A program made the position numbers and the translations under genes. From NCBI GenBank assembly GCA_018692915.1, contig JABHLG010000004.1:1-60926 (forward strand): a stretch of 60,926 bases of DNA, read 5' to 3'. The stretch's first letter is position 1, and each line of letters begins with the position of its first letter. The notes under the pieces are model-generated. The model worked only from the letters and a program-made list of their open reading frames with translations. It did not search any database and had not been told where the DNA came from. This stretch comes from Candidatus Woesearchaeota archaeon. Lineage in GTDB: Archaea > Nanobdellota > Nanobdellia > UBA10117 > JABICX01. This document shows, one piece after another, positions 13,795 to 60,926 of this stretch.

Positions 13795-14604
13795 TTATTT
13801 ACCTACGCCACGAGAGTGTTTTGGTTCAAGATAATGATAAATAACAAAGAACATAATAATACTTCCAAGTATGCCCATACTTAATGCGAGAAATATTCTA
13901 TTAAAGTAAACTGTAAGTATGGCTGTTATAATTGTAAGTGTTAGTAAAAATGTTCCCAATAATCTTGACCCAAAGTAAATCATTTCACCTTCCATGTAAG
14001 GAATATCGTTTTTGTGCCATACGACTTTTTTTAATTTATGTGTCATAGCACGAACATCTCCTTGTCCTACCATCATTGTTAGAGGAATTACTCTAAAGAA
14101 AGGAAAAAGATTCATTGTAGCTAGCCAAAAATTGATAACCATTAATTTATGCCAAACAAATGCACCTGTTTTTATAGCCAATATCCCTGCAATTAGTGCT
14201 AGAATAAAATTACTAAATGGACCTACAGCAGCAATCTTAGCTCTTTCCCAAGGACCCATGTGTGGAAATTTATGTTTAGGTCTTAGAACATATTTTGAAC
14301 TAATAACTACAACCCAAACAGCTGCAAAAATAATATACCCATTTGTTAAAATTGTTATTAAAAGTGCAGCAAATAAAAGTGAATTCCAAGTTTTGAATTT
14401 AACTGTAGCATCATATTTTTTAGCAAAGCGTTTATGAACTATTTCATGAATTCCAATTGAAATAGCAACAAGAATTGTAGCAAGAATGAAATTTCGAATA
14501 CCTACACCTATGTTAAATTGAGATATACCCCAATCTCTGAAACTAAAACAAAATCCCAATACAATTGTCGTTATTGCTAAAAGTTTGAACTCACTTTTAT
14601 CCAT
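13795..14604 (-). CDS. membrane metalloprotease, site-2-protease (M50)-like
   Basis: Polytopic. HExxH inside a helix ('IHEIVHK') and a downstream 'NLFPF' (NxxP) motif. Confidence 0.6.
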   Translation of the reverse strand: MDKSEFKLLAITTIVLGFCFSFRDWGISQFNIGVGIRNFILATILVAISIGIHEIVHKRFAKKYDATVKFKTWNSLLFAALLITILTNGYIIFAAVWVVVISSKYVLRPKHKFPHMGPWERAKIAAVGPFSNFILALIAGILAIKTGAFVWHKLMVINFWLATMNLFPFFRVIPLTMMVGQGDVRAMTHKLKKVVWHKNDIPYMEGEMIYFGSRLLGTFLLTLTIITAILTVYFNRIFLALSMGILGSIIMFFVIYHYLEPKHSRGVGK

Positions 14605-35373: not shown

Positions 35374-35706
35374 CTAGTTCTTTTTCCAGGCTATTTGTTG
35401 AACTATTTTTTCAAGTTTTCTAGAGTTGATGCGAACTTTTTGATAAAGGTAAAAGACAATTCCTGTTAGAAACATAAAACCTGCAATTGTGAAAAATGGA
35501 ATTGGTCCGCCACCAATACCTAAAACTAATCTAAATTTATTAATCCAATCTGTAAACATTAGTGCAAATATGAAACCTAGCCATGCAGCTGACCAAATAT
35601 AAAAATCTCCTCGAGTTAAATGATGACGCTTCCAGCTATCAAATGCTAAATAAAGCATTCCTGCACCATAAGCAATACCAATTAGTTGTATGAAAATCAA
35701 ATCCAT
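35374..35706 (-). CDS. small 4-helix membrane protein (DUF2304-like, GT2-associated)
   Basis: 110 aa. 10-nt overlap with the upstream GT2 gene, the usual partner arrangement. Confidence 0.5.
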   Translation of the reverse strand: MDLIFIQLIGIAYGAGMLYLAFDSWKRHHLTRGDFYIWSAAWLGFIFALMFTDWINKFRLVLGIGGGPIPFFTIAGFMFLTGIVFYLYQKVRINSRKLEKIVQQIAWKKN

Positions 35707-36362
35707 CCTATCTTTACCTCTAACATTTTTATAAAGAATCCCATACCTACCAATACACTTGTGCCTTTGTAAGCATCGTGATAAAATGTTTCAACAGGAA
35801 TTTCTGTGAATGCGATGTCGTTCTTTAATGTATTAATAATCATTTCAGTTTCAACAAAATATCCATGTGAGTGCCATTTGATTTTCGGATATATTTTAGA
35901 TTTAAATGCTCTAAAACCATTTTGCGTATCATCTATTTTAGCACCAAACAAAACTCTAAAAATATTGTTTAATCCCCAATTACCTAAACGAAATACGCGT
36001 GGAGAGTTTTCAGGCATCTTACGTGTTCCAAAAACAATATCTGATTTGTTTAATTTTTTCAGTAGTTTTGGAATTTCTTTTGGATTATGCTGACCATCTG
36101 CATCAATTAAAACAATTGTATCTGCTTTGTTTTTGATTGCGTATTCAATACCTGTTTTCATTGCAACACCTTTACCCATATTTACAATATGCTTCAAAAC
36201 TATTGCTTTGGATTTTTTTGCTTCTAAATATGTTTTATCTTTAGAGCCATCATCAACAACAATTACTTTATCAACATACTTAGAAACTTTTTGAGCAGTT
36301 TTTCTAATATGTTTATCTTCATTAACTGCTGGAATAATTGCAAATGTTTTCATTTTAGACAA
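35697..36362 (-). CDS. family 2 glycosyltransferase (dolichyl-phosphate hexose synthase-like)
   Basis: 'AIIPAVNE', 'VVDDGSKDKT' and 'LIDADGQH' (DxD) motifs. Confidence 0.8.
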   Translation of the reverse strand: MSKMKTFAIIPAVNEDKHIRKTAQKVSKYVDKVIVVDDGSKDKTYLEAKKSKAIVLKHIVNMGKGVAMKTGIEYAIKNKADTIVLIDADGQHNPKEIPKLLKKLNKSDIVFGTRKMPENSPRVFRLGNWGLNNIFRVLFGAKIDDTQNGFRAFKSKIYPKIKWHSHGYFVETEMIINTLKNDIAFTEIPVETFYHDAYKGTSVLVGMGFFIKMLEVKIGWI

Positions 36363-37362
36363 ACCATATAAGTAAAGAGAATGCTAGTTCAACTAGCATT
36401 AATTGATAAACAATTTGCTTTTCAGTAAACCTTCCTGTTCTCATCCATATATGTGGAAGCGAGTGAATTCCCTTCCATTTAGAATGAACTTTATTTTTCT
36501 TATCAACAAAACCAATTGTATCTTTTTTAAATTTACTTCTAGACTTTAACGCGAATTCAATAAAAAATGGAATCGAACAGATTGCTGCTGCTCTTTCAAT
36601 GTTACCAAGAATTGCAATACAAGCAAGACTTGCACCTAAGAAATATGTTAAAGAATCTCCTGCCATTATTTTAGCAGGTGCTTTATGGAACTTCCACAAA
36701 GCAAGAAGTGAGCCAAAAACTGCAAAAGATAAAACTGCACCTAAATAACTTTGATGAACAATTGAATATAATCCCAACATACCTGTATAAATTATTCCCA
36801 TACCAGAACCTAAACCATTTAACCCTTCTAACATATTGACCATGTTTGCAGCACCAAAAATCCCAATTGGCACTATCATTAAAGGATATAGAATTCCAAA
36901 GTTTATGTTTCCGAAAAAAGGAATATTCATTGTAGAAGTTCCTGCAGATATTATCATCAAAGGAATAATTGCAGGAAGAATAAGAAGAGGTTTTTGCCAT
37001 TGTTTTAATCTTCCACCTGTTTCAGTTGATTTGTAATCTGCTTTATCTTTAATAGTTGTAAGATCATCCATAAAACCTGCAATTGTAATTATTAGAAGCG
37101 TTGTAATTGCAGCAAAAATATGTAGTATTTGAATATTACTATTATTATAAATAAACGTTTGAATAAATATTAATGCACTTAGTGCTACAAAAGTCCCTGC
37201 AAAAGCAATCCAACCAGCACTTCTTGGAACTAATGGTTTGTTTATTTTGTGCGCGTCTGGAACAGTCATTCCAATACTTCTTAGAAATTTAATAATTGGA
37301 GTTGCAGAAATATAACTAATTAGAAAGCTTACAATAGTTATGAACAGTATTGTTTTTATCAT
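36355..37362 (-). CDS. dolichyl-phosphate GlcNAc-1-phosphate transferase (MraY/WecA/AglH family)
   Basis: Polytopic. 'FMDDL' and 'NMVNMLEGLNGLGSG' motifs of the polyprenyl-phosphate sugar-phosphate transferase family. Confidence 0.75.
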   Translation of the reverse strand: MIKTILFITIVSFLISYISATPIIKFLRSIGMTVPDAHKINKPLVPRSAGWIAFAGTFVALSALIFIQTFIYNNSNIQILHIFAAITTLLIITIAGFMDDLTTIKDKADYKSTETGGRLKQWQKPLLILPAIIPLMIISAGTSTMNIPFFGNINFGILYPLMIVPIGIFGAANMVNMLEGLNGLGSGMGIIYTGMLGLYSIVHQSYLGAVLSFAVFGSLLALWKFHKAPAKIMAGDSLTYFLGASLACIAILGNIERAAAICSIPFFIEFALKSRSKFKKDTIGFVDKKNKVHSKWKGIHSLPHIWMRTGRFTEKQIVYQLMLVELAFSLLIWFV

Positions 37363-37376
37363 TCTTCAATACTCCT

Positions 37377-39971
37377 TTATCCGTAAATACTCTTTTCTAA
37401 GTATTTATCATCCACCTTAGCGGTTGAAGGATATTCAATTTCCCAAATTCTAATTGGACCTATAATACTACCTTGGTATATTCCAAGAGGTGTTCCATCA
37501 TCATATACTTTATTAAATCCCGGAATTTTTTCATCATAAAAATATAGTCTTGCTAAGTTACCATCTTTAACTTTTGATGATGCAAATAACATCGCACCAA
37601 TTGGGTTTATATTTTCATTATCAATATAATATGGAAGTAAGACAACGCACGCATCTATTGATGGTTCTTCAACAATTATGTTTTGAATAACACCCTTATT
37701 AACAACACAATTAATGTTCATAGAAAGTTGCTGTCCATTTCCAACTACGAAATATGCTACGGGTGGTTCAAATGACCCATCTTCATAAACCATCATACTT
37801 ATTCCTGCAAGAGCCGTTCCTTGTGGAAGAACGCGATTATCAATAATTAAATCCTGGTCTAATCCCCAATATCCTTGGTAAAGATTTTCAACGCCTCCTC
37901 TAATTTCATTTTGGCCTTGCAGTGCGAACATACCTATTGTGCTTCTTCTGTCAAAATCTTCATCAGAACCAATTGTTGCAAAAGCATGATATTTTCCAAT
38001 TTCTTCATTTGAGATTAATAAATGTGTAACTTCATGAGTTTTAAAATAATCAAATGTTTCTGTGAGATTATTATGTGTCAATCCATAGCGACCCATTCCA
38101 TGGTCCCATGCCATAGCATTTCCACCATCAACAACTGTTGCTCGTTCTCCAATTGTTTGTGTCCAATAACCATAATCCCACCAATGCGCAATTACTGCAT
38201 CCTCCGCAGTATTATCTCTAATCCATGTCATTGAATTTTCCCATTTTCCAGGTAAACCTGAACCAGAATTTGAATTTACATATGTTGCTGTAACAGTATT
38301 TGAGTAAAAGCAAAATGCAGCAAAAATAATTAAAATTATTGCCAGTACTTTTTCAGTCTCGCTGTGTTTGAATAAATCTTTAGCTAAATTAACTGTAAAA
38401 TATGCCGCTACTATTGCAACGGTTGGACCAAATGCAAATATTGTTCTTACTGCTCCACGTGCGATAATTGCAGTAAATAAGAACCAAATGAAAATCAAAA
38501 GTAAACTCCAATCTACATTAAATATTTCAGAAAAAGCATGTTTGTCTCTGTTATAATAATAAATATAAAATCCAAAAAATGCTGCTACGAAAAATCCAAA
38601 CCACCATAGATATGTTGATGTAGAAAATTCAGCAATTTTAGCATATTTTGCGTCTGGTGAAAATCTACCAAATATGAATATGATAAAAAATATTGAATAA
38701 CTTGCAGCAATTGAAAGTCCAACTTTTAATGATTTAAACATTTTAATTACCATATAAATTGAGCCAAAAAATGCTAATAAGAACGTCCAACCAAATCCAG
38801 ACCACCAACCATTACCACCAATAAAATAAGGTTGTTGGTTCTCTGAAACTGTAAATGCAAATCTACTTGTTCCTCCAGGATGTAGAAGTCTGCTTATAAC
38901 AAAAGAAGGGTCGGTTAATCCTAAAGCCCATCCTACAATAAATGCGATTATAGCAATTCCACCGAGAATGATTAATTCTCCAGGAATTTTGTATGGAAGA
39001 GCATCACCAATATTATCAGCTAGATTTTTAAGAGGCTTAATTTTATTTGCTAAAAGAATTACAACTGAAAGAAGTAACGCCAAGTTTTCTAATTCTTTGA
39101 TAAAATTTATATTACCAAGAGCTATTGCGCTTAAAATTACAAATGATGCAAACCAACTTAAATAGCCAATCAATTGATTTTTTGATAATTTAGTTAAAAT
39201 TGTTGAAAGTATTGCTAATCCCACAAGTGAAACAATTAAGAAACGATATCCTCCCGGCCAACTAAAATACATAAATGCAGAAATAATTCCTGCTGAACTT
39301 CCAAATATAATTGATTTAATTGTTTTTTTAGATTGCCACATTAATGCAAATAGCCATAGTGCTGCGAACATGAAAACCATAGCAATTGCTTCGTGGTCTG
39401 CAAATCCTGCGCCGGTTCTGTAAATATAACCAGGAATAACTGCTAAAAATGCAGTTGCAACAAGTGCAACTCTTTCGCCAAAAATTTCTTTTACAAATAA
39501 GAATAAAAATACTAAGCTAATAACTGTAGCAACTACGGGATATATTATATGCCATTCTATTTGTGTTACTGATGGCATAATCAGATTAATTATTTTGTAA
39601 GCATATGCTAAAACATAACTAACAAATCTATAGTCCATTCTTAAATTATAACCTAGTGGAACATAACGCATCATATCATGTGTTACCATAGTTCCAGTTT
39701 GAACTATTTCTTGAGAATATCTAAAGAACGCATAGGGGTCTAATCCTAATAAATATTTACTTTGTAAGTGAGAGAGGTTTCTTGTTCGCACAAAATAAGC
39801 AAGTGCTAAAATTGGAAGAAGTAAAATCCAATAAATATTATTAGTTTTTAGGAATTTAATAACTTTTTCTCTGTCTATAGATATTGTTTCATCAGATTTA
39901 TCTTCACTTTTAATAAGACCTTTAAATTTACTCACTATTTGTTTCCTTTTATCAGAAATATCATCCATCAA
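37377..39971 (-). CDS. aglB: archaeal oligosaccharyltransferase AglB (STT3)
   Basis: 864 aa. 13-helix N-terminal region and the catalytic 'WWDYGYW' motif. Confidence 0.92.
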   Translation of the reverse strand: MMDDISDKRKQIVSKFKGLIKSEDKSDETISIDREKVIKFLKTNNIYWILLLPILALAYFVRTRNLSHLQSKYLLGLDPYAFFRYSQEIVQTGTMVTHDMMRYVPLGYNLRMDYRFVSYVLAYAYKIINLIMPSVTQIEWHIIYPVVATVISLVFLFLFVKEIFGERVALVATAFLAVIPGYIYRTGAGFADHEAIAMVFMFAALWLFALMWQSKKTIKSIIFGSSAGIISAFMYFSWPGGYRFLIVSLVGLAILSTILTKLSKNQLIGYLSWFASFVILSAIALGNINFIKELENLALLLSVVILLANKIKPLKNLADNIGDALPYKIPGELIILGGIAIIAFIVGWALGLTDPSFVISRLLHPGGTSRFAFTVSENQQPYFIGGNGWWSGFGWTFLLAFFGSIYMVIKMFKSLKVGLSIAASYSIFFIIFIFGRFSPDAKYAKIAEFSTSTYLWWFGFFVAAFFGFYIYYYNRDKHAFSEIFNVDWSLLLIFIWFLFTAIIARGAVRTIFAFGPTVAIVAAYFTVNLAKDLFKHSETEKVLAIILIIFAAFCFYSNTVTATYVNSNSGSGLPGKWENSMTWIRDNTAEDAVIAHWWDYGYWTQTIGERATVVDGGNAMAWDHGMGRYGLTHNNLTETFDYFKTHEVTHLLISNEEIGKYHAFATIGSDEDFDRRSTIGMFALQGQNEIRGGVENLYQGYWGLDQDLIIDNRVLPQGTALAGISMMVYEDGSFEPPVAYFVVGNGQQLSMNINCVVNKGVIQNIIVEEPSIDACVVLLPYYIDNENINPIGAMLFASSKVKDGNLARLYFYDEKIPGFNKVYDDGTPLGIYQGSIIGPIRIWEIEYPSTAKVDDKYLEKSIYG

Positions 39972-49329: not shown

Positions 49330-49818
49330 ATGCACAAAATAAGACGAGCTGAACCAAAAGACGCAAAACAAGTAAGACAGATGAGTATTGATTTAGAGGA
49401 AGCTATGTTTGATTTGCACAAGAAAAATAAACAAACTATATTTGCGCAGAAACCCGTTATTGCTTCGAAGCATTCAGTTAAAGATCATGCTGAATGGTTC
49501 GCAGGTATGGATGGCAAAAAAGATATTGATTTGACGCATATGTGGTATGTATTAGAAGTTGATGGAAATGTTGTTGGTTATATCAATGGACAGCTCGAGA
49601 AAGAAAATGTAGGTCATTTAGATTCATTATATATTCTTAAGTCATATCGTGGCAAAGGTTATGCAACTGCAATGGTCAAGAAAATTAAAAAATGGTTCAA
49701 ACTAAAAAAAGTAAAGTTTATTGATATATCTGTAGATGCTCCAAATAAACCTGCTCAGAAGTTGTACGAAAAATTAGGTTTTGTTAAAAAGACACACATT
49801 TATGGTTTGAAAGTTTAA
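49330..49818 (+). CDS. GNAT family N-acetyltransferase
   Basis: 'LYILKSYRGKGYATAMVKK' acetyl-CoA binding motif (Q/RxxGxG/A). Confidence 0.75.
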   Translation: MHKIRRAEPKDAKQVRQMSIDLEEAMFDLHKKNKQTIFAQKPVIASKHSVKDHAEWFAGMDGKKDIDLTHMWYVLEVDGNVVGYINGQLEKENVGHLDSLYILKSYRGKGYATAMVKKIKKWFKLKKVKFIDISVDAPNKPAQKLYEKLGFVKKTHIYGLKV

Positions 49819-50429
49819 GAGATATCTACATTTATTACTTGGATGTAGCTGGTGTTAATACAATCATTTGTTGTATTAGTATGTGAATAAGTTAGAAGAA
49901 CTTTATGTGAGCCTTTTCCTGCTGCAGCATTTCCACTAGGTTTAAACTGAACAGAATAGCATTTGTTTGTTAAAGTATCATTTAGCATAATGTAATTAAC
50001 TGAAATATCTCTACCTTTTTTCATCACACAGCTACTTCTTTCTTCCCCAAGCGTTCCAAGAATCGTGTAATTAAAACAAGAACCATTTATACTAGCATTA
50101 CCAAGAATTGCAGTTCCCTTACTTAGAAATGCATCAGGTGGATTCCTTTCAAAAGTAAAAGTTATTGTATGATTATTGTCAATAAAAAGATAACCTTCAT
50201 CAATATCAAAATTAACACTTCGCTGTGATTGTTCGTTTGCAACTTCTCTTATAGCTTTGTCTAATTCAATCATTCTATTTTCAATGCGAGAAATTTCATT
50301 AACTTGATTTGAATCATCTAGAAATTCTTTAGCCCAAAAGAAAGTTCCACTTACAACAACAATTATAATTAGTGTTATAATTAAAAATCCAGTTATATTT
50401 GATTGAGCTTTTTTATTTATCATTGACAT
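49815..50429 (-). CDS. type IV pilin-like protein (class III signal peptide), minor-pilin candidate
   Basis: 'MSMINKKAQSNITGFLIITLIIIVVVSGTFFW' has a basic leader plus a hydrophobic helix. 10-nt overlap with the upstream pilin gene. Confidence 0.6.
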   Translation of the reverse strand: MSMINKKAQSNITGFLIITLIIIVVVSGTFFWAKEFLDDSNQVNEISRIENRMIELDKAIREVANEQSQRSVNFDIDEGYLFIDNNHTITFTFERNPPDAFLSKGTAILGNASINGSCFNYTILGTLGEERSSCVMKKGRDISVNYIMLNDTLTNKCYSVQFKPSGNAAAGKGSHKVLLTYSHTNTTNDCINTSYIQVINVDIS

Positions 50430-52120
50430 TCACATGTGCCTGTATCTAAATCTGAAGTGCATGTTCCAGAGTCACAAGTTCCTATTGAACAAGACCAATC
50501 TGGCGGAACACCACCACAAGTTTCAGCAGCCATACATTCACATTCATGACCATATGTTATTGCACAATCACCTCCACTTGAGCACGCACCATTGCAAAAT
50601 GGATAAGTATATTCACATAAACTATTTTCATTTGAAGTTTCAACAAGACCTTTATCAAATCTACCTGAAACAGATGCTTCGCTACCAAAATTTATTCTAA
50701 AACTATATTCACTTCCAGTTCCATATTTAGCTAAATCACAATTAGTATCTGAAAGTTGTAATTCAATTAATCGTGTCTCACCTGCAACCATATCTGTGCC
50801 ACAACCTTGAATACATTCAACACGATTATTTGAACAATAAGAATAATTAATAATACTACTAAATCCCTTACCCTCTGCTTCATAAGCTTGTTGCCAAGAT
50901 GTGCCATCTATTGAACTAAGTATAACTCCACCATTTTCACTATATACTGTAGCAAATAATTTATTATTAAATACAGCAAATCCAGATACAGAATCGTTGT
51001 TGTTTGTAGATTTTTTACCCCAACCACCTACCCAACCACCTAAGTTTGGGTCATATCTCCATATTGATGCGCCACCTGTTTTATTTGTTCCAGCAAAAAA
51101 CGTATCATTAACAAATAATCCAAAACTAATAACTGCATCATCTCCAGTACTTAATATTCTTGAGCCAAAATTTTCACCATCTGCTGTAGCCCATATTTCT
51201 CCACCATTAAAACCTACATATAATTTATCATTATATACTTTAATAGCAGTTATATTTCCAAAATAATTACTTGAAACTGTCCAATTATCACCATCATCTG
51301 TTCTAATTAATCTACCTCCATTCATTGTGCTAACATATAATTGATTATTAAATATTTCCATATCTGTAATATCATCTTGTTCTGAATCATAAACTTCTGT
51401 CCATGTTTGATTTGATTCTCTTCTAAATACCTTACCATCTCCTTCACCTGCATCAGATGTAGTAGATGCATATAAATTACTCTTGAATTCAATTAAATCA
51501 GTTATTTTTCTTGCATTGGGTATGTCATTATCTAAACTCCAACTGTTAAAATTACAACTTTTAAATATACCTGCTCCAACTGAACTTATATCTATTAATA
51601 CACTAGTTCCTCCAAAATAAATACTATCATTATATTCTGCACTAGCAGATATTTCAGATGCTCCAACCTTACTATCTCTTGCTGTCCAAGATACGCCATC
51701 TATTGAATGAATGATGCTAGAATTTCCATCTGAATTTTGTATTGTTGCAAATATACCACTTTCTTCTGTAATACATGTTCCTTTAAATGTACTTAAACAA
51801 ACTACGTTATCGTTTGAATCAGAAATCATAATTTCTGTGCTATTAGCAATCTTTACTTTTTTCGCTCCCGAGTTTTGTATTAACATTTTTATAGATGTTG
51901 GGATGCATTGTAAATCATCTGCGAGTGTATTATAAATAGGTTCATCTACAATTTTAACTTCAGTTATAATACTGGAAAGTGTTTGCTCATGATATTGTGT
52001 TCCAATTTCTTGTGATTCGGTTTGTATTCGTGCAAACCATAAATACATAGCACTAGCAATTGCAAATGTAATTAATATTATAATAAGTATATTAATTATT
52101 CCTGTCATACCTTTCTTCAT
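50420..52120 (-). CDS. pilin-like protein with an inserted six-bladed beta-propeller-like domain and a Cys-rich C-terminal tail (tip-adhesin candidate)
   Basis: Class III leader 'MKKGMTGIINILIIILITFAI'. Pilin-core blocks 'SDSNDNVVCLS' and 'CIQGC..CDLAKY..YSFRINF..SGRFDK' align to the 203-aa pilin. Six 'N[DN]x[LI][YF]' blades lie between them. Confidence 0.7.
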   Translation of the reverse strand: MKKGMTGIINILIIILITFAIASAMYLWFARIQTESQEIGTQYHEQTLSSIITEVKIVDEPIYNTLADDLQCIPTSIKMLIQNSGAKKVKIANSTEIMISDSNDNVVCLSTFKGTCITEESGIFATIQNSDGNSSIIHSIDGVSWTARDSKVGASEISASAEYNDSIYFGGTSVLIDISSVGAGIFKSCNFNSWSLDNDIPNARKITDLIEFKSNLYASTTSDAGEGDGKVFRRESNQTWTEVYDSEQDDITDMEIFNNQLYVSTMNGGRLIRTDDGDNWTVSSNYFGNITAIKVYNDKLYVGFNGGEIWATADGENFGSRILSTGDDAVISFGLFVNDTFFAGTNKTGGASIWRYDPNLGGWVGGWGKKSTNNNDSVSGFAVFNNKLFATVYSENGGVILSSIDGTSWQQAYEAEGKGFSSIINYSYCSNNRVECIQGCGTDMVAGETRLIELQLSDTNCDLAKYGTGSEYSFRINFGSEASVSGRFDKGLVETSNENSLCEYTYPFCNGACSSGGDCAITYGHECECMAAETCGGVPPDWSCSIGTCDSGTCTSDLDTGTCECQ

Positions 52121-52172
52121 AGTATATTAATTGTATACTTACTTATATAATTTATTAGAAATAACAATAAAA

Positions 52173-52784
52173 TTATTTTACGAACTTGCCGCCCGTTCCA
52201 GTTATACCACTGAAGTCAATTGTAAATGAAAATATCGTATTATTATTATATTCAGCAAGGTCATCACAAGGGTCCCCAAGATTAAGTGTAACTTTTTGTA
52301 TCTCACCAATTTCTAAATAATTATTACAACCACTTATACAATCAGCAGGAGAATCTTCCCAATCACTATTACATACAACATCATTATCGGAGTCATATAA
52401 TATCCATGTTGTTGTCGGAGCATCATTGGAACTCGATATTGGAATATTTGAGTTACCATGATTAATTAAATAAATATCAAGGTCTCCACCAACATATTTT
52501 GCAGTCATAACATCAACGTTGGAACTTATTTTTTCAGATAATTCTTGTTGATATGCTTCAGTTCCACCTTGTGCTTCAGATTGAATTCTAACAAACCAGA
52601 AAAATGCAGCTCCGGCAGCAGCAACAGTCATCATAAGTAATAGAACTACAGCTATAACTGGTGTGATACCTTTTTTACTCATTCTAGAGTGCCGATAAGG
52701 TACACTTTTTGCCAACTTTTTGTGCGAAGCAGAAAAAGCTGCTGGAGTGATACCTTTTTTATTACGTCTAATCTTAGCGTGCAT
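52173..52784 (-). CDS. archaeal type IV pilin (PF07790-type N-terminus) with a 34-aa duplicated leader
   Basis: 'KKGITPVIAVVLLLMMTVAAAGAAFFWF' is preceded by 'MHAKIRRNKKGITPAAFSASHKKLAKSVPYRHSR'. An internal Met (MSKKGITPV) is an alternative start at 52682. Confidence 0.8.
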   Translation of the reverse strand: MHAKIRRNKKGITPAAFSASHKKLAKSVPYRHSRMSKKGITPVIAVVLLLMMTVAAAGAAFFWFVRIQSEAQGGTEAYQQELSEKISSNVDVMTAKYVGGDLDIYLINHGNSNIPISSSNDAPTTTWILYDSDNDVVCNSDWEDSPADCISGCNNYLEIGEIQKVTLNLGDPCDDLAEYNNNTIFSFTIDFSGITGTGGKFVK

Positions 52785-52808
52785 AATCTAATTTATATCT
52801 TTTAGAAT

Positions 52809-52820
52809 ATATATAGTTTT
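52809..52820 (-). promoter_or_regulatory. BRE/TATA-like promoter 12-mer (aaaactatatat on the coding strand)
   Basis: Identical 12-mer 25-36 nt upstream of the ATG at 52784. The same 12-mer occurs at 53963-53974 and 57321-57332. Confidence 0.5.
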
Positions 52821-52888
52821 TGAACTATTGTGAAAAAACTGTATGCTAGCAAAACATTTGTTTTGATTTGTATAAAATTATGGTCTAG

Positions 52889-53512
52889 TTATGTTTCAAA
52901 AGTCCCTGATGTTGTTGCTTCACCACTAAAGAATACTGTTGCACGCATTAATGTATCATCTGAGTAACCAGAAATATCACACTTTGTATCTGATAAATTT
53001 AAGTAAATCGCAGTGCTAGCAGAAGACTGAAGATTTGTAGATGGACCGCAACCAGAATAACAATCAACACTTGTAACTGAAAGAACTGTTGTTCCATCAA
53101 ACTTTGATTCACAAACAGTTATTTGCTCACTATCTTTGAGAATCCACGTTGTTGTCGGGTCTGTTGTAGAATTATCTAATGGAATATCTGTTGTACCAAC
53201 GTTTTGTAAGTAAACGGTTATTGTTTCTGATGTTGCATTATAATCTGCATCAAGCCAGTTTACGCTAGATGCTAATCTATCAAATACATTTTCTTGATAT
53301 TGTTCTGTTCCGCCCTGCATCTGGCTTTGAATTTTAATTAACCAGTAGAAGCTTGCGCCTGCAGCAGCAACAGTCATCATTAATAATAAAATAATTGCTA
53401 TAATTGGAGTAATTCCTTTTTTGTTTTTAGGGTAGCGCTGATAAGGTGCTCTTTTTGCCAACTTTTTGCGCGAAGTGGAAAAAGCTGTTGGTGTGATACC
53501 TTTTTTATTCAT
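52889..53512 (-). CDS. archaeal type IV pilin with a 30-aa duplicated leader
   Basis: 'MNKKGITPTAFSTSRKKLAKRAPYQRYPKN' is followed by 'KKGITPIIAIILLLMMTVAAAGASFYW'. There is no internal Met before the second KKGITP. Confidence 0.8.
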   Translation of the reverse strand: MNKKGITPTAFSTSRKKLAKRAPYQRYPKNKKGITPIIAIILLLMMTVAAAGASFYWLIKIQSQMQGGTEQYQENVFDRLASSVNWLDADYNATSETITVYLQNVGTTDIPLDNSTTDPTTTWILKDSEQITVCESKFDGTTVLSVTSVDCYSGCGPSTNLQSSASTAIYLNLSDTKCDISGYSDDTLMRATVFFSGEATTSGTFET

Positions 53513-53940
53513 TATTTTTTTCTCCTATATTTTACTGGAATACCGCTAGGCAACCGTCTAAATGCAGTAAATGTTTCGTTTGAATTTAAACTCTTAAATG
53601 CACGAGTTAAGTGGTCATGTTTGTCATGTAAACCATCAATTTTAGAATGTAATTTTTTAAATTCATGACCAGAGTCATCTTCTAATTCAATTTCTCTAAT
53701 TACATTAATGAATTTTTGCAAATGTGTTTTGATTTCCTCAAGTTTGTAATTTTGTTCAATAATTTTTTGTTGTGTCTGTAAGTTTGAATTTAGTAATTTA
53801 ACTAAAAGTCTTTCAGCATTATTTTCTTTTTCCATACCCTTGCGTAAACTTCTTACTTCTCTTTTCAAGTCATGCAAAGGCTGAATCGGAATAAGTTCGT
53901 ATTCATCAATACTACTAGAGCTACTTTTCTTCCTACTCAT
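53512..53940 (-). CDS. coiled-coil protein, first gene of the pilin operon
   Basis: 142 aa. Ser-rich N-terminus, long heptad-like helices and a basic C-terminus. Its stop abuts or overlaps the pilin ATG. Confidence 0.55.
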   Translation of the reverse strand: MSRKKSSSSSIDEYELIPIQPLHDLKREVRSLRKGMEKENNAERLLVKLLNSNLQTQQKIIEQNYKLEEIKTHLQKFINVIREIELEDDSGHEFKKLHSKIDGLHDKHDHLTRAFKSLNSNETFTAFRRLPSGIPVKYRRKK

Positions 53941-53962: not shown

Positions 53963-53974
53963 ATATATAGTTTT
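53963..53974 (-). promoter_or_regulatory. BRE/TATA-like promoter 12-mer (aaaactatatat)
   Basis: Lies 23-34 nt upstream of the ATG at 53940. Confidence 0.5.
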
Positions 53975-54151: not shown

Positions 54152-54829
54152 ATGGCATCAAATTATAATGAAATGAGATTATCTGAAACTGAGCTAGGTT
54201 ATGTAGATAAAGAAGCAATATTAATCAGTAAAATCGGTAAAGAAGTTACATATTTATCTAGAGATATTATTCACGTTTTCTCAAACATATCACTCGCATC
54301 AAGGAAAAAACGTGAAGCAGATGCTACTATACCTGCTATGAATTATGTTCAAACAGCAAGATGGGAATCTGAAAGACTCATAAAGAAAATAGAAAATAAA
54401 TCTCCAAAAATACAAAGCGCAATAAAACAATTAATTCTTCTTATTAAACATAATGAAAAAATAACTAAATATTTAGAAATAGAAGATAAATCAATTAAAG
54501 AACTTTTAGGTTTAGAAAAAAATCTATTTAGCATTCTTAGGTTGTATGACAGTAAGTTAACTAAATTAAATTCTGTTTTTAATACTAGAACATTAAGAGC
54601 TGTTGTTGTAGCAAGAGCAATTAATTTTAATTGTAAAAAAATAATGGATAAGGGTGCACATTCAGTTAAATATGATATTTTATCTAATGCTAAATTCGAA
54701 AAAGACGTTATTGTATTAGAACGTTATTTTGCTTCACTTCCTCTTGCATTTGAAAGATTATCTGAAATATTTAGACATATGAGAAATTTAGAAGTAAAAT
54801 TAGAACAATTAGAAAAAATTAAAAAATAA
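54152..54829 (+). CDS. hypothetical all-helical protein
   Basis: 225-aa ORF divergent from the pilin operon. No motif recognised. Confidence 0.5.
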   Translation: MASNYNEMRLSETELGYVDKEAILISKIGKEVTYLSRDIIHVFSNISLASRKKREADATIPAMNYVQTARWESERLIKKIENKSPKIQSAIKQLILLIKHNEKITKYLEIEDKSIKELLGLEKNLFSILRLYDSKLTKLNSVFNTRTLRAVVVARAINFNCKKIMDKGAHSVKYDILSNAKFEKDVIVLERYFASLPLAFERLSEIFRHMRNLEVKLEQLEKIKK

Positions 54830-56452
54830 TTACATCATTCCAGGAGGCATGCCTTGTGGATGCATTTGTTGTTGATTTGATTTACCTGAGCTAATGATAT
54901 CATCAATGCGTAAGATTAGGATTGCTGCTTCTGTTGCAGATTGAATTGCCTGAGTTTTAATTTTAAGTGGCTCAATAACTCCGGCTTGCCACATATCTTG
55001 AGCCTGACCTGAAAAAACATTTAATCCAGACCATTTCTTTCCACTATCATGTTCTGCTTTTAATGCAGTTAACATATCAATTGGGTCTAAACCTGCATTT
55101 TCTGCAAGAGTTCGAGGAATCATTTCAAGTGCTTCTGCAAAAGCTTGAACAGCTAGTTGTTCTCTTCCACTAAGACTGTCTGCATATTTTCTAAGTTCTT
55201 TTGCTAGCTCAACTTCAACTGCACCACCTCCTGCAACACATTTTCCATTTGATAATGCTGCAGATAGGTCACCAATTGCATCTTTTAGTGCTCTTTCAAC
55301 TTCATCAACAACATGTGCAGTTCCACCGCGGATTATTGCAGTAACTGCTTTTGGATTAAGGCATTTTGTAACATATGTCATATTTTCATCGCCCAATTTT
55401 TTCTCTTCAACAAGCCCAGATTTACCTAAATCTGTTGGTTTAATTTCATTTATTTTAGAAACTATTTTTGAACCTGTTGCTTTTGATAATTTAATTATAT
55501 CACTTTGTGTAACTCTTCGCACAGTATAAATTCCTTTTTGCGCTAAAAAGTGTTGAGCAAGGTCATCAATACCTTTTGAGCAAAAAACAACACTTGCTCC
55601 AGCATTAGAAATTGCATCCACATATGCTTTCAATGTTTTTTCTTCAGAATCTAAAAATGCTTGTAATTGATTTGGGTCAGTTATTTGAATCTTTGCTTCA
55701 ATTTCAGTATTTTTAACTTCAATGGCAGTATCAAGCAAAGCAATTTTTGCATTTGCAACACGCTTTGGCATATCACTATGAATTCGTTCTTTATCTAAAA
55801 CCACACCATCAATTAATTCAGTATCTGCACTACCACCACCTTCTTTCTTTTCAATTTTAATATTATCCATATCTACCTTATTATTTTCAGCAACGTGAAG
55901 AACTGCTTTAACTGCAATTTCAGCTAATTTACCTTTAGCCCATTCTACATTTTTTCCAGTCATAGCCGTCATAGCAATGTTTTTAAGAGTTAATTTATTA
56001 GTTATATCAATATCCATACCAATTGCTTGTAATATTGATTGTGCTCTTTGTGCAGCAAGTTTATATCCATCTGCAATTACAGTTGGATGAATATTTTTAT
56101 CTAGGAGAGATTCAGATGCATGTAATAGTTCACCTGCAATTACAACGGCAGTAGTTGTTCCGTCACCAACTTCTTCTTCTTGAACTTTTGCAACTTCAAC
56201 AATCATTTTTGCAGCAGGATGTTCTATTTGCATTTCATCAAGAATTGTAACACCATCGTTTGTTATTGTTACATCATTGTTTGCACTTACTAACATTTTA
56301 TCCATACCTTTTGGACCTAATGTTGTTCTAACTGTATCGGATATTGCTTTTGCAGCAGCAATGTTTGCTTTTTGTGCTAATTTACCAGTGTTCCTTGAAG
56401 AACCTTCAGGAAGAATAAAAATTGGTTGAACTTGATCATTCATAATATACAC
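54830..56452 (-). CDS. ths: thermosome subunit (group II chaperonin)
   Basis: '[10 protein letters not shown]', 'VGDGTTT', 'GGGAVE' and a C-terminal 'GMPPGMM' tail. The probable start is the 4th codon (MNDQ). Confidence 0.95.
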
Positions 56453-56500: not shown

Positions 56501-56752
56501 TCATCTTGATAGTGCTTTTCTAATATCTGCAAGAATTACTGCAATTACAATTAAAACTATGCTAATAATTCCTGAAAAAAATGTAGTTAATGAGGTCCAA
56601 CTTAGTAAATAATTACCTGTGCTTATATCTGCAGCTTGCTGTAGCAGTATAAAGGCACTAACAGACCAAATAACTAACGCTCCTATTAAACCTATTTCTA
56701 TAAAATCGGGGCTACTTGTCTTTGTTCTTTCAAATATACTTTTTTTTATCAT
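56501..56752 (-). CDS. small two-helix membrane protein downstream of a pilin gene
   Basis: 83 aa. It starts 1 nt after the stop of 56754-57299. Confidence 0.5.
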   Translation of the reverse strand: MIKKSIFERTKTSSPDFIEIGLIGALVIWSVSAFILLQQAADISTGNYLLSWTSLTTFFSGIISIVLIVIAVILADIRKALSR

Positions 56753-56753
56753 T

Positions 56754-57299
56754 TTAACTATTAGCAGGATCTTTAATAAACTGACTTCCAGTTCCTGTTA
56801 CACCTGCGAAGTCCATCTTAAAATAAAATACAGAGTTATTTGTATATGTTCCTAAATAACAATTGTGTGATGTGTTACTTATGTTTAATATAATTGTACG
56901 AGTGCTTCTAACATCAATATTAGAATCACAACCACTTTGGCAATAAGTATTTTCATTATTACCTGTTCCCGATGCATTAAATGGTTGGTTACAAACAATA
57001 TTTTGTTTATTATCTTTTAATATCCACGTTACTGTTGATGTATCTGTTAACGGCACCTCTGTATTGCCTATGTTTCTAATTATTATTTTAAGAGATTCAT
57101 CATACATAACATCAACTTCAGATACATCCGCCTTTGCAGCAATTTTTTCAGATAGTTGTTCAGAATAAGATTCTGTACCGCCTTGCATTTCAGATTGAAT
57201 TCTAACAAACCAGAAAAATGCAGCTCCGGCAGCAGCAACAGTCATCATAAGTAATAGAACTACAGCTATAACTGGTGTAAGACCTTTCTTATTATTCAT
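56754..57299 (-). CDS. archaeal type IV pilin (no extended leader)
   Basis: 'MNNKKGLTPVIAVVLLLMMTVAAAGAAFFWFVRIQSE'. 90 nt of the N-terminal helix coding sequence are identical to 52575-52664. Confidence 0.85.
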   Translation of the reverse strand: MNNKKGLTPVIAVVLLLMMTVAAAGAAFFWFVRIQSEMQGGTESYSEQLSEKIAAKADVSEVDVMYDESLKIIIRNIGNTEVPLTDTSTVTWILKDNKQNIVCNQPFNASGTGNNENTYCQSGCDSNIDVRSTRTIILNISNTSHNCYLGTYTNNSVFYFKMDFAGVTGTGSQFIKDPANS

Positions 57300-57320: not shown

Positions 57321-57332
57321 ATATATAGTTTT
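57321..57332 (-). promoter_or_regulatory. BRE/TATA-like promoter 12-mer (aaaactatatat)
   Basis: Lies 22-33 nt upstream of the ATG at 57299. Confidence 0.5.
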
Positions 57333-57390: not shown

Positions 57391-57906
57391 ATGGTCAAGT
57401 ATGATATCTTCAATGAAGTAAAGATAGATTTAACAGGGCAGTTATTTGATGTTAAAGAGGTATATAAACACGCACATGATTGGTTAGATTGGAGACGATT
57501 TGATGTTGTCGAAAAAAAATATAAAGAAAAATCAAAACCCGCAGGACGAGAGATTAAAATAGAATGGGAGTGCACACGAGATATTGATGAATATTCTAGA
57601 TTTGAGATTAAAGTTAAATGGGAAATGTATGGTATTAATGATGTTAAATTAAAGCAAGAAGGTAAAGACATAAAGCTTCAGACAGGTAATATTGTTATGC
57701 GCGTAACTGCACTTCTTGTTATGGATTATGGTGCAAAGTGGGAGACTAACAGAATAAATAAATTTTTACAATCTTTTTTTGAGAAGTATCTTTATGCAGG
57801 AACTTTCGAAAGATTAAAAACCGAGCTTTGGAAAGAAGGTTGGGATTTCTATAACGAAATGAAAGCATATCTTGACTTGTATCATTTTGGTGATTATATT
57901 GAATAG
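57391..57906 (+). CDS. hypothetical protein
   Basis: 171-aa ORF. No motif recognised. The antisense ORF 57363-57671 is judged a shadow. Confidence 0.5.
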   Translation: MVKYDIFNEVKIDLTGQLFDVKEVYKHAHDWLDWRRFDVVEKKYKEKSKPAGREIKIEWECTRDIDEYSRFEIKVKWEMYGINDVKLKQEGKDIKLQTGNIVMRVTALLVMDYGAKWETNRINKFLQSFFEKYLYAGTFERLKTELWKEGWDFYNEMKAYLDLYHFGDYIE

Positions 57907-57916
57907 TAATTTTAAA

Positions 57917-58036
57917 ATTCTGAAATTCAGAAAATACGTAAAATCAGAAATTCAGAAAATACGTAAATTCTGATATTCCGAATATACGTAAATTCAGAAA
58001 ATACGTAAATTCTGATATTCCGAATTTCAGAAAAAC
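57917..58036. repeat. tandem/inverted TTCnGAA repeat array upstream of an AbrB-type regulator gene
   Basis: The 33-nt unit ttcagaaaatacgtaaattctgatattccgaat occurs at 57951-57983 and 57993-58025 (period 42). The 17-mer ttcagaaaatacgtaaa occurs 3 times. Palindrome ttctgaaattcagaa at 57918-57932. Confidence 0.85.
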
Positions 58037-58063
58037 TTAAATAAGAATATAATATTATAAATT

Positions 58064-58270
58064 ATGAGTAATCATCTTAAGATATCTCAAATTGATAATC
58101 GTGGTCAAATTGTAATACCTAAAGAAATAAGAGAAAAACTAAAAATCTCTCCCGGAACAGGATTTTATATTTATAATATATCTAGTGACGGTATTCTTCT
58201 AAAGAAAATACCTAATATTTTACCTGATATTGAGCTAGCAAAAAAAGAACTTCGGAGGTTTAAGAAATGA
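58064..58270 (+). CDS. AbrB/SpoVT/MazE-type DNA-binding protein
   Basis: 'ISQIDNRGQIVIPKEIREKLKISPGTGFYIY' matches the swapped-hairpin AbrB domain signature. 68 aa. Confidence 0.75.
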   Translation: MSNHLKISQIDNRGQIVIPKEIREKLKISPGTGFYIYNISSDGILLKKIPNILPDIELAKKELRRFKK

Positions 58271-60926
58271 AATATCTTAAGTTTGCATTGATTCTTATAC
58301 TTGTTTTAGGTATGGGTCAAGCTTGGGCCATCGATAATCACATAATTTTTGAAACAACTAATGAATATGATGGTAATTTAGGTGGAAAAAGTGGTGCGGA
58401 TGGAATCTGTATGACTGAAGCAGAGAGTTTGGGATTAAATGGAGAATTTATCTCATATTTAGATTATACTACTGAAAAAGCATTAGATTATCTTAATCTT
58501 GACATGATTTATGAAACACCTGCTGGTGAAATAAATTTTAGAGAAGATAGTATAGACGCACCATTTAGGGCATTTAATGGAGAATATTGGTATGGTGAGG
58601 GTTGTAATGATTTTTCTACAAATGCTGTAGATGTTGATGGTAGATATTATATTAATGATGGAACAAGTTTAGTATCAAATACGGATGATTGTAGTAATAC
58701 ACACAAATTACTTTGTGCAACGCTTAAAGCATGTGGTAATGGTTTAATTGAAGATGGTGAAGTTTGCGATGATGATGATATTATAACTGAAACTGCTTGT
58801 GATTATGGAACTCAAGAATGTACTCTTTGTAATGCAGATTGCACAGCAGAGTTAAGCTTAATTGGGTCATATTGTGGAGATGGAACTATTGATACAGGAG
58901 AAGTTTGTGATGATGGCAATAATGTCGATGAAACTGCTTGTGAATATGGTAATATAAGTTGCACATCTTGTAATTCAGATTGTTCAGCAAATCTTACATT
59001 AAATGGATTATATTGTGGTGATAAAATTTTGAATTTAACTTTGGGAGAAGAATGCGATGATGGTAATAATCTCACAAAAGATGGATGTAATGCAATGTGT
59101 CAGAATGAAACAACATTTATGCTTCGAGTTCATTTATTTGATTATGCTAAGAATTTAGTTACTTCAATTAAGAATATCGGATATACAATGGTAGAAATTA
59201 CTGTTGATAATTTAGATTCAGCAGAAACAACTGTTAATGCTTATATTTATACAGGCAAGGCAGTTCCTGCCGGAATTGTAGGTCATAATATTTATTGTGA
59301 TATGCAGGGAGTATTATGTTGTATTTCTTCTACAGGTTACTGTAAAGATTATTATGTGCCTGAAACTGGAGGAGCATTTACTGGAAGCCCTTGTGTATGT
59401 AATAGTACTGCAGGGTTTAATGAGAAAATGCCTTGGATGAGCGTCTATCCAGAATCTTTTGAAACAATATCTTTAGAAAAATCTGGAGCAAAATATACAT
59501 CTCTTCTAGATGAAAAAGAATATAGATACTCTGATTGTAAGCGTAAAGGCGAACATTCTGTTTGCTATATTAAAGCTTATTTTGAAGATCCAGAAGGTAA
59601 TATCTTTGACGAACTTTATACTTTAGAAATAGAGCGAGATTCATCAAGCAAGCCGATTATAAACTACACTATTGCAGGTGACCCTGAAGCTAATAAAGAT
59701 GTATATTATATTGATGTGGAAACATTTGAAACTGCTAGTGAAGATCCTTATCCCGTAGTATTTGATGCATCATTAAGTCAATTTAAATCACCTACATGTT
59801 ATGGTGGAGAAGAATGTTACTTCTTAGATAGTAATTTCTTAGAATACAAATGGTATATTGAAATACATAATAAACCATGGGGAAAAGTAGAGAATTTCCT
59901 TTGCACAAATGGAACAGATTCTTGTGTAAATCCTGTATGTGAGACTCAATGTGCAGATAAATTACCATGTACTTGCTTACAATTTGATACAGATGGTGAA
60001 GTTTATGATGGATATGTTGATAATCGCAAGACTTTCTCATATGACTTTGCTAATTCAAATGTTTGTGGTCCAGAAAAAAGCTGTGCAGTAACTCTTACAG
60101 TTACAGATAAAACAACTCTTGCTTCAAGCACAAAGCAATTTGGTATAATTCTTTCAGGAACTGCAACAGGAGATAGTCCATATGGAAATTACAGTCAGCT
60201 ATGCAGTGTTGGTGGAGAACAAATTGGATATACAGGTTATTGTTGTAGAACAGGATATATGGTAAATCCTAAGTTTAATAATTTTAATGAATTGTTCAAA
60301 AACAGAATGGATGCTTGTGTTGAAGTTCCGAATAAAGCACCAATTGCTAGAATTTCTTTTCCTGAAGATGATGAGATTTACAAAGCAGGAAATAATAAAG
60401 ATATTTACTTTAGAGCAGAAGGTTCTGATTCAGATGGTAACATAACTGCTTATTTATGGGATTTTGATGATAGAACCGAGCCATGGGGTTATCTTGAAAC
60501 TAATGAATATGATGAAATTGTTTGCGAAGCTGTAAAAGGAAGCAAATCTTGTGGTGAAGAAGAAGCGGTTTCTCTAGATGATTATGATGAAGAAGAGCAA
60601 ATTCCATGTTCTTGTAATCTAAAATATAGTGAGGATATTCTTAATATATATCCAGAATCTGCATCAACAAAGCAAAAGACTGTTCATACATATGAAAATA
60701 AATATGCTTGTTCTGAATATGATGAAGAAAAAGAATCAGAGTGTGAGATTACTTTATGGGTATTTGATGAAGAAGATACTGCTGGAAAAACAAAAATAAC
60801 TATAGAACTTACTGATGAATCTTCTGGTGATGGAATTGATGGTGATTTAGATATTGATTTCTACTGTGGTGATGGATTAGTTACTGGAACTGAAGAGTGT
60901 GATATTGGTGAAGTAAGTGCTTGTGA
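58267..60926 (+). CDS. large secreted cysteine-repeat/PKD-like surface protein, 5' part (over 886 aa, continues beyond the window)
   Basis: ATG 58267 overlaps the AbrB stop (ATGA). Frame 1 was read open to the window end. Signal peptide MKYLKFALILILVLGMGQAWA. 'CGDGTIDTGEVCDDGNN' type repeats occur at least 4 times. 'GSDSDGNITAYLWDFDD' is PKD-like. The ORF is absent from the track because it has no stop in the window. Confidence 0.85.
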   Translation, partial: MKYLKFALILILVLGMGQAWAIDNHIIFETTNEYDGNLGGKSGADGICMTEAESLGLNGEFISYLDYTTEKALDYLNLDMIYETPAGEINFREDSIDAPFRAFNGEYWYGEGCNDFSTNAVDVDGRYYINDGTSLVSNTDDCSNTHKLLCATLKACGNGLIEDGEVCDDDDIITETACDYGTQECTLCNADCTAELSLIGSYCGDGTIDTGEVCDDGNNVDETACEYGNISCTSCNSDCSANLTLNGLYCGDKILNLTLGEECDDGNNLTKDGCNAMCQNETTFMLRVHLFDYAKNLVTSIKNIGYTMVEITVDNLDSAETTVNAYIYTGKAVPAGIVGHNIYCDMQGVLCCISSTGYCKDYYVPETGGAFTGSPCVCNSTAGFNEKMPWMSVYPESFETISLEKSGAKYTSLLDEKEYRYSDCKRKGEHSVCYIKAYFEDPEGNIFDELYTLEIERDSSSKPIINYTIAGDPEANKDVYYIDVETFETASEDPYPVVFDASLSQFKSPTCYGGEECYFLDSNFLEYKWYIEIHNKPWGKVENFLCTNGTDSCVNPVCETQCADKLPCTCLQFDTDGEVYDGYVDNRKTFSYDFANSNVCGPEKSCAVTLTVTDKTTLASSTKQFGIILSGTATGDSPYGNYSQLCSVGGEQIGYTGYCCRTGYMVNPKFNNFNELFKNRMDACVEVPNKAPIARISFPEDDEIYKAGNNKDIYFRAEGSDSDGNITAYLWDFDDRTEPWGYLETNEYDEIVCEAVKGSKSCGEEEAVSLDDYDEEEQIPCSCNLKYSEDILNIYPESASTKQKTVHTYENKYACSEYDEEKESECEITLWVFDEEDTAGKTKITIELTDESSGDGIDGDLDIDFYCGDGLVTGTEECDIGEVSAC

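Follow-up and report, generated by a model that had tools for sequence, protein, structure and literature searches.

Archaellin-like pilins and a propeller-bearing pilin in the probable structural half of an archaeal type IV pilus locus of a Woesearchaeota-type archaeon

Archaeal type IV pili (AT4P) were surveyed by Makarova, Koonin and Albers in 2016 (PMC4858521), who described large adhesin candidates with a class III signal, an intracellular coiled-coil component in one halobacterial system (arCOG07564) and, in most archaea, pilin genes lying outside the type IV pilus (T4P) operons. The 'dark matter' T4P loci of DPANN archaea are full of unrecognisable pilins (Makarova 2019, PMC6393860). 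The stretch of Candidatus Woesearchaeota DNA analysed here (contig JABHLG010000004.1, 60,926 nucleotides, hereafter called the window) carries five minus-strand genes between positions 49815 and 53940 which, together with a third pilin gene at 56754-57299, very probably code for the structural half of an AT4P in a Woesearchaeota-type DPANN archaeon of marine origin. The parts list is the same as that of the surveyed AT4P loci, i.e. an ATPase of the VirB11/FlaI family and a TadC/FlaJ platform, together with major pilins, a number of minor pilin-like proteins and one large adhesin candidate bearing a class III signal. The system departs from them as follows: its putative major subunits resemble the archaellin family more than PilA/DUF1628; two genes encode the platform; the adhesin candidate is a pilin in its own right, with a propeller inside its head domain; and the family of the coiled-coil protein is restricted to these DPANN lineages.

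The 'flagellar-like' AT4P of Pyrobaculum calidifontis (8fk7; PMC10334743) likewise comes from a non-archaellum locus, and its subunit combines an archaellin-like fold with a long N-terminal helix. Among the sequence-profile matches to the pilins described here it ranked first (E 0.03), and it is among the top structural matches (E 6.8e-5), at an identity of about 13%. The P. calidifontis locus has a gene for a KaiC/FlaH-like ATPase, whereas none was seen here, and its filament has a '10-strand' packing, whereas the present system is known from its genes and from predicted folds. The archaellum has in common with the present system the superfamily of the subunits, the ATPase and the platform, the logic of class III processing and the N-glycosylation of subunits, predicted here. 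In contrast to the archaellum, no ArlH was found in the contiguous locus of a relative (L007, see below) and no family match to ArlC/D/E/X was obtained, the scores for ArlI, ArlJ, ArlF and ArlG are far below the equivalog cut-offs, and the locus also encodes a large adhesin-like subunit.

The five open reading frames (ORFs) are found at 53512-53940 (142 amino acids, aa), 52889-53512 (207 aa, pilin A), 52173-52784 (203 aa, pilin B), 50420-52120 (566 aa, propeller-pilin) and 49815-50429 (204 aa), all on the minus strand. An earlier note on this DNA had described five co-directional genes with overlaps or short gaps, and its coordinates were reproduced exactly by the ORF listing. The 142-aa ORF overlaps pilin A by 1 nt (TAATG), gaps of 104 and 52 nt follow on either side of pilin B, and the propeller-pilin and 204-aa ORFs overlap by 10 nt. 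Four of the genes had been said to begin with a class III (prepilin) N-terminus. The ORFs of the window, about 70 in number, were screened for [KR][GA] followed, after no more than six residues, by an 18-residue stretch with a mean Kyte-Doolittle value of at least 2.2, within residues 1-50. The screen selected the 207-, 203-, 566- and 204-aa ORFs, in agreement with the note, and one further ORF of 181 aa at 56754-57299, with the caveat that in the 207- and 203-aa ORFs the motif begins at residue 30 or later and not at the ORF start. The 181-aa product is a third pilin encoded beyond the thermosome gene; the five-gene module of the earlier note stands in all its members and had left out a sixth. 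The model for the archaellin/type IV pilin N-terminal domain, TIGR02537, gave 34.9 bits for pilin A, 36.2 bits for pilin B and 35.9 bits for the third pilin against a cut-off of 20, while the class III status of the 566- and 204-aa proteins comes from the pattern screen and from paralogy only.

Pilin A (52889-53512, minus strand) has a predicted cleavage site at KNKKG/ITPIIAI after residue 33 (the slash marks the cleavage position, here and below), and its paralogue pilin B (52173-52784, minus strand) at MSKKG/ITPVIAV after residue 39. Directly after the K-K-G of both follows a hydrophobic stretch of about 24 residues. The four conserved Cys residues of pilins A and B suggest two disulfides. 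Both ORFs match PF01917 (Arch_flagellin) over nearly the whole model, with E values of 1.2e-5 for pilin A and 1e-4 for pilin B (26.2 and 23.1 bits, gathering threshold 29.5), and many close homologues carry a precomputed PF01917 match. The haloarchaeal PilA-type model PF07790 (Pilin_N/DUF1628) gave 20.4 bits for pilin B (E 1e-3, threshold 25.2) and no match for the other proteins. Homologues of pilin A form more than 200 clusters of 170-200 aa which, where they are named, are called 'flagellin-like' or 'archaellin/type IV pilin N-terminal domain-containing' and come from metagenome-assembled genomes (MAGs) of Woesearchaeota and Nanoarchaeia. Orthologous pairs of pilins A and B are kept in the related loci L007 and L024 and in two JGI contigs.

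Fold comparison was needed for these pilins, since the search of the PDB with the pilin-family sequence profile gave marginal matches only (E 0.03-0.2). The AlphaFold2 model of pilin A, built from 121 sequences, has a predicted local distance difference test score (pLDDT) of 85 and consists of a 48-residue N-terminal helix (residues 6-53) followed by an eight-strand beta-sandwich. The top Foldseek matches all belong to the archaellin/AT4P superfamily (FlaG, FlaF, 8fk7 and archaellins). Pilins A and B are thus archaellin-superfamily pilins with a class III signal and a helix-plus-beta-sandwich fold. The earlier note had called them two major-type pilins; that they are pilins was upheld, and both the sequence models (TIGR02537 above its cut-off, PF01917 just below the threshold) and the fold (Foldseek) place them more precisely in the archaellin superfamily.

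Some of these properties would also suit a reduced archaellum for rotary swimming, in which pilins A and B would take the part of archaellins and the 204-aa and other pilin-like proteins that of an ArlF/ArlG-type stator, with the 142-aa protein in place of ArlX or ArlC/D/E. The match to PF01917 covers nearly the whole model, FlaG, FlaF and archaellins are the top fold matches, and a long N-terminal helix, predicted here at 48 residues, has been linked to archaellar filaments and not to pili (PMC10334743). A small probability is kept for an archaellum-like filament because the predicted helix is long. The 566-aa propeller-bearing subunit, on the other hand, fits adhesion and not a supercoiling propeller filament, and the motor genes bear further on the question (see below).

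The leader-coding regions of both pilin genes contain an 84-nt in-frame insertion (53405-53488 in pilin A and 52659-52742 in pilin B, minus strand), because of which the predicted leaders are as long as 33 and 39 residues. In pilin A the insertion was deduced by comparison with the 98%-identical strain L023, whose pilin A begins MTRNKKG/ITPIIAI, and it is bounded by two copies of an 18-mer coding for KKGITP. The insertion of pilin B is a diverged copy of that of pilin A, and the differences are mostly non-synonymous (manual count). An internal ATG five codons ahead of the cleavage site could serve as an alternative start of pilin B. All six public contigs of the window strain carry the insertion; its core sequence is found in the window only at the two pilin genes and had no exact match in the JGI metagenome contigs. 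A structured RNA or an intron was also considered for the 84 nt and is unsupported, with a fold z-score of -0.9.

The 566-aa propeller-pilin (50420-52120, minus strand) has the class III N-terminus MKKG/MTGIINIL. In BLASTP its residues 2-116 align with residues 31-142 of pilin A (E 2e-12) and its residues 434-489 with residues 149-206 (E 3e-8). Since pilin A aligns on both sides of it, the predicted beta-propeller of about 310 residues (residues ~117-433, nt 50822-51772) is inserted within the head domain and not appended. The propeller region was modelled by AlphaFold2 with a pLDDT of about 80-90 and retrieved Kelch-type and seven-bladed propellers with Foldseek (E 1e-11 to 1e-12); a DUF6242 match to the protein was below the threshold. 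Downstream of the second pilin-like part is a tail rich in Cys (12 between residues 502 and 565, nt 50426-50617), and the protein contains 10 N-X-S/T sequons, i.e. 1.8 per 100 aa. The alignments identify the 566-aa protein as a paralogue of pilins A and B with a predicted beta-propeller inside a loop of the head domain and an appended Cys-rich tail, and the term 'propeller-pilin' of the earlier note is supported by the split alignment to pilin A, the modelled propeller fold and the Foldseek propeller matches. Seven full-length homologues were found, all at the same position of the locus.

Binding modules displayed by type IV filaments have precedents. PilY1 of Pseudomonas is a beta-propeller adhesin and not a pilin, and PilB and PilC of Streptococcus sanguinis are modular pilins in which the module is part of the pilin polypeptide and is appended. 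The propeller-pilin would resemble both in presenting a binding module on a type IV filament, in PilY1 also a beta-propeller. It has no sequence homology with them, and its module is inserted in the head domain whereas those of the known modular pilins are appended.

The 204-aa protein (49815-50429, minus strand), a pilin-like core component, has the class III-like N-terminus KKA/QSNITGFLIITLIII. It contains 8 N-glycosylation sequons and four conserved Cys residues; its sequon density, 3.9 per 100 aa, is the highest in the window, where the overall density is 0.56 per 100 aa. With pilins A and B it has only the N-terminal 33 columns in common (hhalign 80%), and its match to DUF7289 is weak. 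A 203-aa protein of Aenigmatarchaeota, encoded just upstream of the ATPase gene, is a full-length homologue (hhalign 97%, E 1e-10).

The first gene of the module (53512-53940, minus strand) codes for a cytoplasmic coiled-coil protein of 142 aa without a transmembrane segment or signal peptide. A (D/E)YEL-P-KPL motif is conserved at its N-terminus, and its C-terminus forms a basic Y-R-R-K tail. The protein belongs to a narrow family, represented by 16 clusters in a set of 1.84 billion proteins. Its gene ends in a stop codon that overlaps the ATG of pilin A (53512), and an AGGAG Shine-Dalgarno-like sequence lies upstream of this ATG, which suggests translational coupling; the 142-aa gene is probably coupled to the pilin A gene in this way. 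Homologues are encoded as the first gene, overlapping or abutting a pilin gene, in L007, L024 and two JGI contigs, and the protein is conserved as the first module gene in five Woesearchaeal lineages. A 136-aa protein at the same position in Aenigmatarchaeota shares the region of the EYEL-P-P motif with the family (hhalign 60%, E 8e-5) and is, judged by this region, probably a homologue. The earlier note had proposed both the 142-aa protein and the product of a divergent 225-aa gene (54152-54829) as new accessory components. The former is the conserved first gene; the latter gene had no family match, is missing from the equivalent position in the relatives, and is thus unsupported as a component of the pilus and was dropped. 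Homology of the 142-aa family to FlaC, MCP and similar proteins was considered and rejected, as profile searches of PDB and Pfam gave designed or generic coiled coils only.

No assembly ATPase, platform or prepilin peptidase had been recognised in the 61 kb by the earlier note. The Pfam scan of each non-overlapping window ORF of at least 70 aa was likewise empty for T2SSE, T2SSF and Peptidase_A24. The other genes of the window are archaeal housekeeping genes, including Orc1/Cdc6, both PolD subunits, Hef, Hel308, LonB, ThyX, the thermosome, SecD/F and AglB/STT3.

The relative L007, a 788-kb JGI contig, carries a pilin A homologue (P0018) with 64% identity, in a contiguous locus. Its gene order is the 142-aa coiled-coil protein, pilins of 179 and 172 aa, a propeller-pilin of 571 aa, proteins of 216 and 156 aa, a T2SSE ATPase of 565 aa, two T2SSF proteins of 293 and 410 aa, and proteins of 325 and 144 aa; the 156-, 325- and 144-aa proteins have class III-like N-termini. 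The 566-aa protein of the window is identical on 19 public contigs, among them a contig of the MAG GCA_018672575.1 (JABHFP010000016.1) and several ENA assemblies. A homologue search with the L007 ATPase retrieved P0125 (64% identity) on JABHFP010000059.1, a contig of the same MAG as the pilin operon, and in three of the ENA samples that also contain the operon. The order on JABHFP010000059.1 is a 171-aa pilin-like protein, the ATPase (591 aa), T2SSF proteins of 292 and 383 aa and pilin-like proteins of 308 and 149 aa, flanked by SerRS and TopA. The ATPase and platform were identified by matches to PF00437 and PF00482, and their best PDB matches are afGspE and FlaI. A search of GTDB genomes with the L007 ATPase gave four loci, from Nanoarchaeota, Aenigmatarchaeota and Hadarchaeales, and none from the window organism.

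The platform is encoded by two genes. At 11785-13811 of the machinery locus of the window organism (L013) one matches the N-terminal and the other the C-terminal half of the ArlJ model, two T2SSF-domain genes are at the matching position in L007 (15710-17805), and two ORFs of matching size and position are present in the Aenigmatarchaeota locus L010 (11395-13356). As the locus is contiguous in L007 and its halves are apart in the window organism, the window genes appear as the first half of an eleven-gene locus broken between the 204-aa and the 156/171-aa genes. The same break is found in three further lineages. There the 204-aa homologue is followed by Hel308, and the propeller-pilins share 42-50% identity with that of the window. 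The five-gene order is kept in four further lineages. The earlier note had held that the structural module is genetically separate from its machinery. This was correct in that the motor is on another contig of the same MAG, and requires the qualification that the break is specific to lineages, the two halves being contiguous in L007. Such separation of structural and motor genes is ordinary, since pilin genes outside T4P operons are common (PMC4858521). Of the parts which the note had proposed to locate elsewhere in the genome (pibD, the ATPase and the platform), the ATPase and the split platform are encoded on JABHFP010000059.1, and no A24 peptidase was found in the window or in the annotations of the related loci L001-L024.

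The motor genes speak on both sides of the reduced archaellum introduced above. The best NCBIfam model is FlaI for the ATPase and ArlJ for the platform, and one homologue of the 142-aa protein weakly matches FlaC_arch. The FlaI model NF058587, however, gave 426.9 bits against a cut-off of 550, and in the PDB the ATPase is nearer to GspE of A. fulgidus (2oap, 391 bits) than to FlaI (325 bits). The platform is in two genes with ArlJ scores far under the cut-off, and the FlaC match is at the level of the coiled coil only. ArlF and ArlG scored 26.5 and 19.4 bits, far under the cut-off of 110, no family match to ArlC/D/E or ArlX was obtained, the contiguous L007 locus has no ArlH/KaiC-like gene, and a 234-aa P-loop protein encoded 8.5 kb upstream in L013 is RadB (233.6 bits, cut-off 172.4). 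By the component criteria of PMC4858521 and PMC10334743 the system is assigned to AT4P and not to the archaellum, which we consider improbable.

The pilin-type processing could alternatively serve a short pseudopilus or an envelope-anchored complex, bindosome- or secretion-like, which would display the propeller or export cargo without forming a long filament. Class III signals are also used by systems other than filaments, such as the Sulfolobus bindosome, and BasE is a secondary match of the ATPase, at 210.8 bits, which is to be set against a cut-off of 1000; BasF reached 27.9 against 1300. The locus holds many pilin-like proteins with dissimilar heads and has genes for giant Cys-rich secreted proteins beside it, yet no class III-signal substrate-binding proteins are encoded in it, and the two to three conserved, highly similar major-type subunits of archaellin fold are typical of filament formers. 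We give this arrangement a slim chance.

A further proposal is that the N-termini are ordinary Sec signals or single-pass anchors of unrelated surface proteins which are adjacent by chance. The screening pattern is indeed simple, and no prepilin peptidase was located in the window or the L001-L024 loci. Against this, TIGR02537 scored above its cut-off for three proteins, the hydrophobic stretch of about 24 residues right after K-K-G is too long for a Sec h-region, the fold is that of archaellin/AT4P subunits, the pilin genes directly adjoin T2SSE and T2SSF genes in L007, and the gene order is kept across lineages at 42-71% protein identity. The proposal is already contradicted by these findings and can hardly be true.

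Several points count against the AT4P assignment itself or against parts of it. The assignment draws on sequence comparison and predicted folds, and the matches of the window copies to the archaellin and pilin models of Pfam lie below the gathering thresholds. In the model of the 566-aa protein the pilin-like parts have a pLDDT below 50 (residues 31-75 and 459-548), and because of this low confidence the insertion topology is taken from the sequence alignment. We infer by analogy that pilins A and B are the major subunits and that the adhesin is placed at the tip. The association of the motor with the pilins assumes correct binning of the MAG, with which the co-occurrence in three ENA samples agrees. 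Finally, PF01478 (Peptidase_A24) had no match in the window ORFs or in the precomputed annotations of the L001-L024 loci, and prepilin processing is therefore assumed.

In the AT4P assembly that we propose, a PibD/FlaK-type peptidase would cleave after the K-K-G/A motif, and the ATPase and platform would pull the hydrophobic helices out of the lipid bilayer and build a filament of pilins A and B together with the third pilin. The filament would be glycosylated, given the AglB gene in the window and the enrichment of sequons. Few copies of the propeller-pilin would be built in, most likely at the tip, so as to expose the propeller and the Cys-rich tail as a binding module. Minor or priming pilins would be supplied by the 204-aa protein and by the pilin-like proteins whose genes adjoin that of the ATPase, and the cytoplasmic 142-aa protein would act on the side of the ATPase and platform, as a scaffold or regulator.

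The biological role of such a pilus is probably adhesion to a surface or to a host cell, and host attachment, as proposed by the earlier note, is a plausible hypothesis. For DPANN archaea, connections resembling pili have been reported (PMC11329633), and in the ultrasmall Saccharibacteria episymbiosis and host binding are driven by T4P (PMC9894109, PMC11623550). Host recognition and attachment in DPANN archaea are largely unknown and almost no Woesearchaeota have been cultivated. The locus provides a concrete conserved set of candidates, with two to three filament subunits, a propeller-pilin as the likely binder, a pilin-like core and a lineage-specific coiled-coil partner. With the matching motor locus now found in the same genome, targeted experiments become possible. 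As genomics, the locus fits the established picture of AT4P and is unsurprising to a specialist; less common are the propeller within a pilin head, a platform encoded by two genes, archaellin-like subunits that are unaccompanied by archaellum accessories, and the DPANN-specific coiled-coil family.

Two Aenigmatarchaeota loci have a related order, in which a thermosome gene (recognised by eye) is followed at some distance by genes for proteins of 136, 203 and 148 aa, the ATPase, two TadC halves and two pilin-like proteins. With counterparts near the ATPase in Aenigmatarchaeota, the coiled-coil and 204-aa proteins seem to belong to an ancient core. Pilins A and B and the propeller-pilin would then have been added in Woesearchaeota, as far as a comparison of only two phyla can tell. 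A wider and distinctly tentative reading is that a type IV filament apparatus has been kept beside the thermosome gene across at least two DPANN phyla as an organelle for finding and holding the host, the propeller and Cys-rich tail being the determinant of host specificity. Its core may then consist of the EYEL-P coiled-coil protein, the 204-aa-type protein, the ATPase, the split TadC and further pilin-like genes, to which Woesearchaeota may have added pilins A and B and the propeller-pilin. If true, this would be a parallel to the T4P-driven episymbiosis of Saccharibacteria.

The thermosome gene (54830-56452) lies between the operon and the third pilin gene. A thermosome gene is also beside or within the pilus cluster in the Woesearchaeal relatives L007 and L024 and, by eye, in the two Aenigmatarchaeota loci (L010, L011). 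This synteny is unusually deep for a chaperonin gene and a filament locus, and may be coincidence.

The third pilin (56754-57299, minus strand, 181 aa) has a B-type N-terminus, MNNKKG/LTPVIAVV, nearly identical to that of pilin B, and its gene is separated from the operon by the thermosome gene. This placement is conserved in L024, in the JGI contigs and in L007, which has two copies. The gene is always paired with one for a small membrane protein of 83 aa (56501-56752, minus strand), to which no family was assigned. The pair is kept in every related locus that was analysed; in L001, L007, L024 and the JGI contigs the partner behind the pilin gene codes for 77-97 aa.

A TATA-like motif, AAAACTATATAT, occurs in four exact copies in the window, each of which ends 21-24 nt upstream of a start codon. 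Three are on the minus strand, at 53963-53974 (22 nt upstream of the 142-aa gene ATG at 53940), at 52809-52820 (24 nt upstream of the pilin B ATG at 52784) and at 57321-57332 (21 nt upstream of the third pilin ATG at 57299). The fourth, at 10425-10436, is upstream of the start (10458) of a gene for a GxGD presenilin-type signal-peptide peptidase encoded in the window (10458-11270). Their spacing suggests that the copies are TATA boxes driving leaderless or near-leaderless transcripts, and from them we infer at least two promoters in the module, at the 142-aa gene and at pilin B, with an AT-rich candidate before the 566-aa gene; the operon probably has three promoters. Searches of the machinery locus and of the relatives' loci did not recover the motif, which is regarded as a local promoter feature and not as the signature of a regulon. 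The G+C content of the window is about 31%, and tRNA and Rfam scans of it gave no match.

A 171-aa protein without family assignment is encoded divergently from the third pilin gene (57391-57906, plus strand); its position is kept in all relatives and it is duplicated in L007. Between this gene and an AbrB-like gene there is an intergenic tandem repeat (57913-58042) with a period of 17 or 25 nt and about 3.5-7 copies. In the region 58062-60926 (plus strand) the small AbrB/MazE-like gene overlaps the start of a gene for a secreted Cys-rich protein of at least 886 aa, which continues past the end of the window and has a Sec-type signal and a weak match to DUF4215. The pair adjoins the pilin cluster in all relatives, in which the large protein has 1075-1871 aa and, in L007, PKD domains, and it could represent a second adhesin system.

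An N-glycosylation cluster is found at 35374-39971 (minus strand), with genes for AglB/STT3 (864 aa, 37377-39971), a phosphosugar transferase of the GT4 family, a GT2 glycosyltransferase and a DUF2304 protein. It could supply glycans for the sequon-rich pilus proteins.

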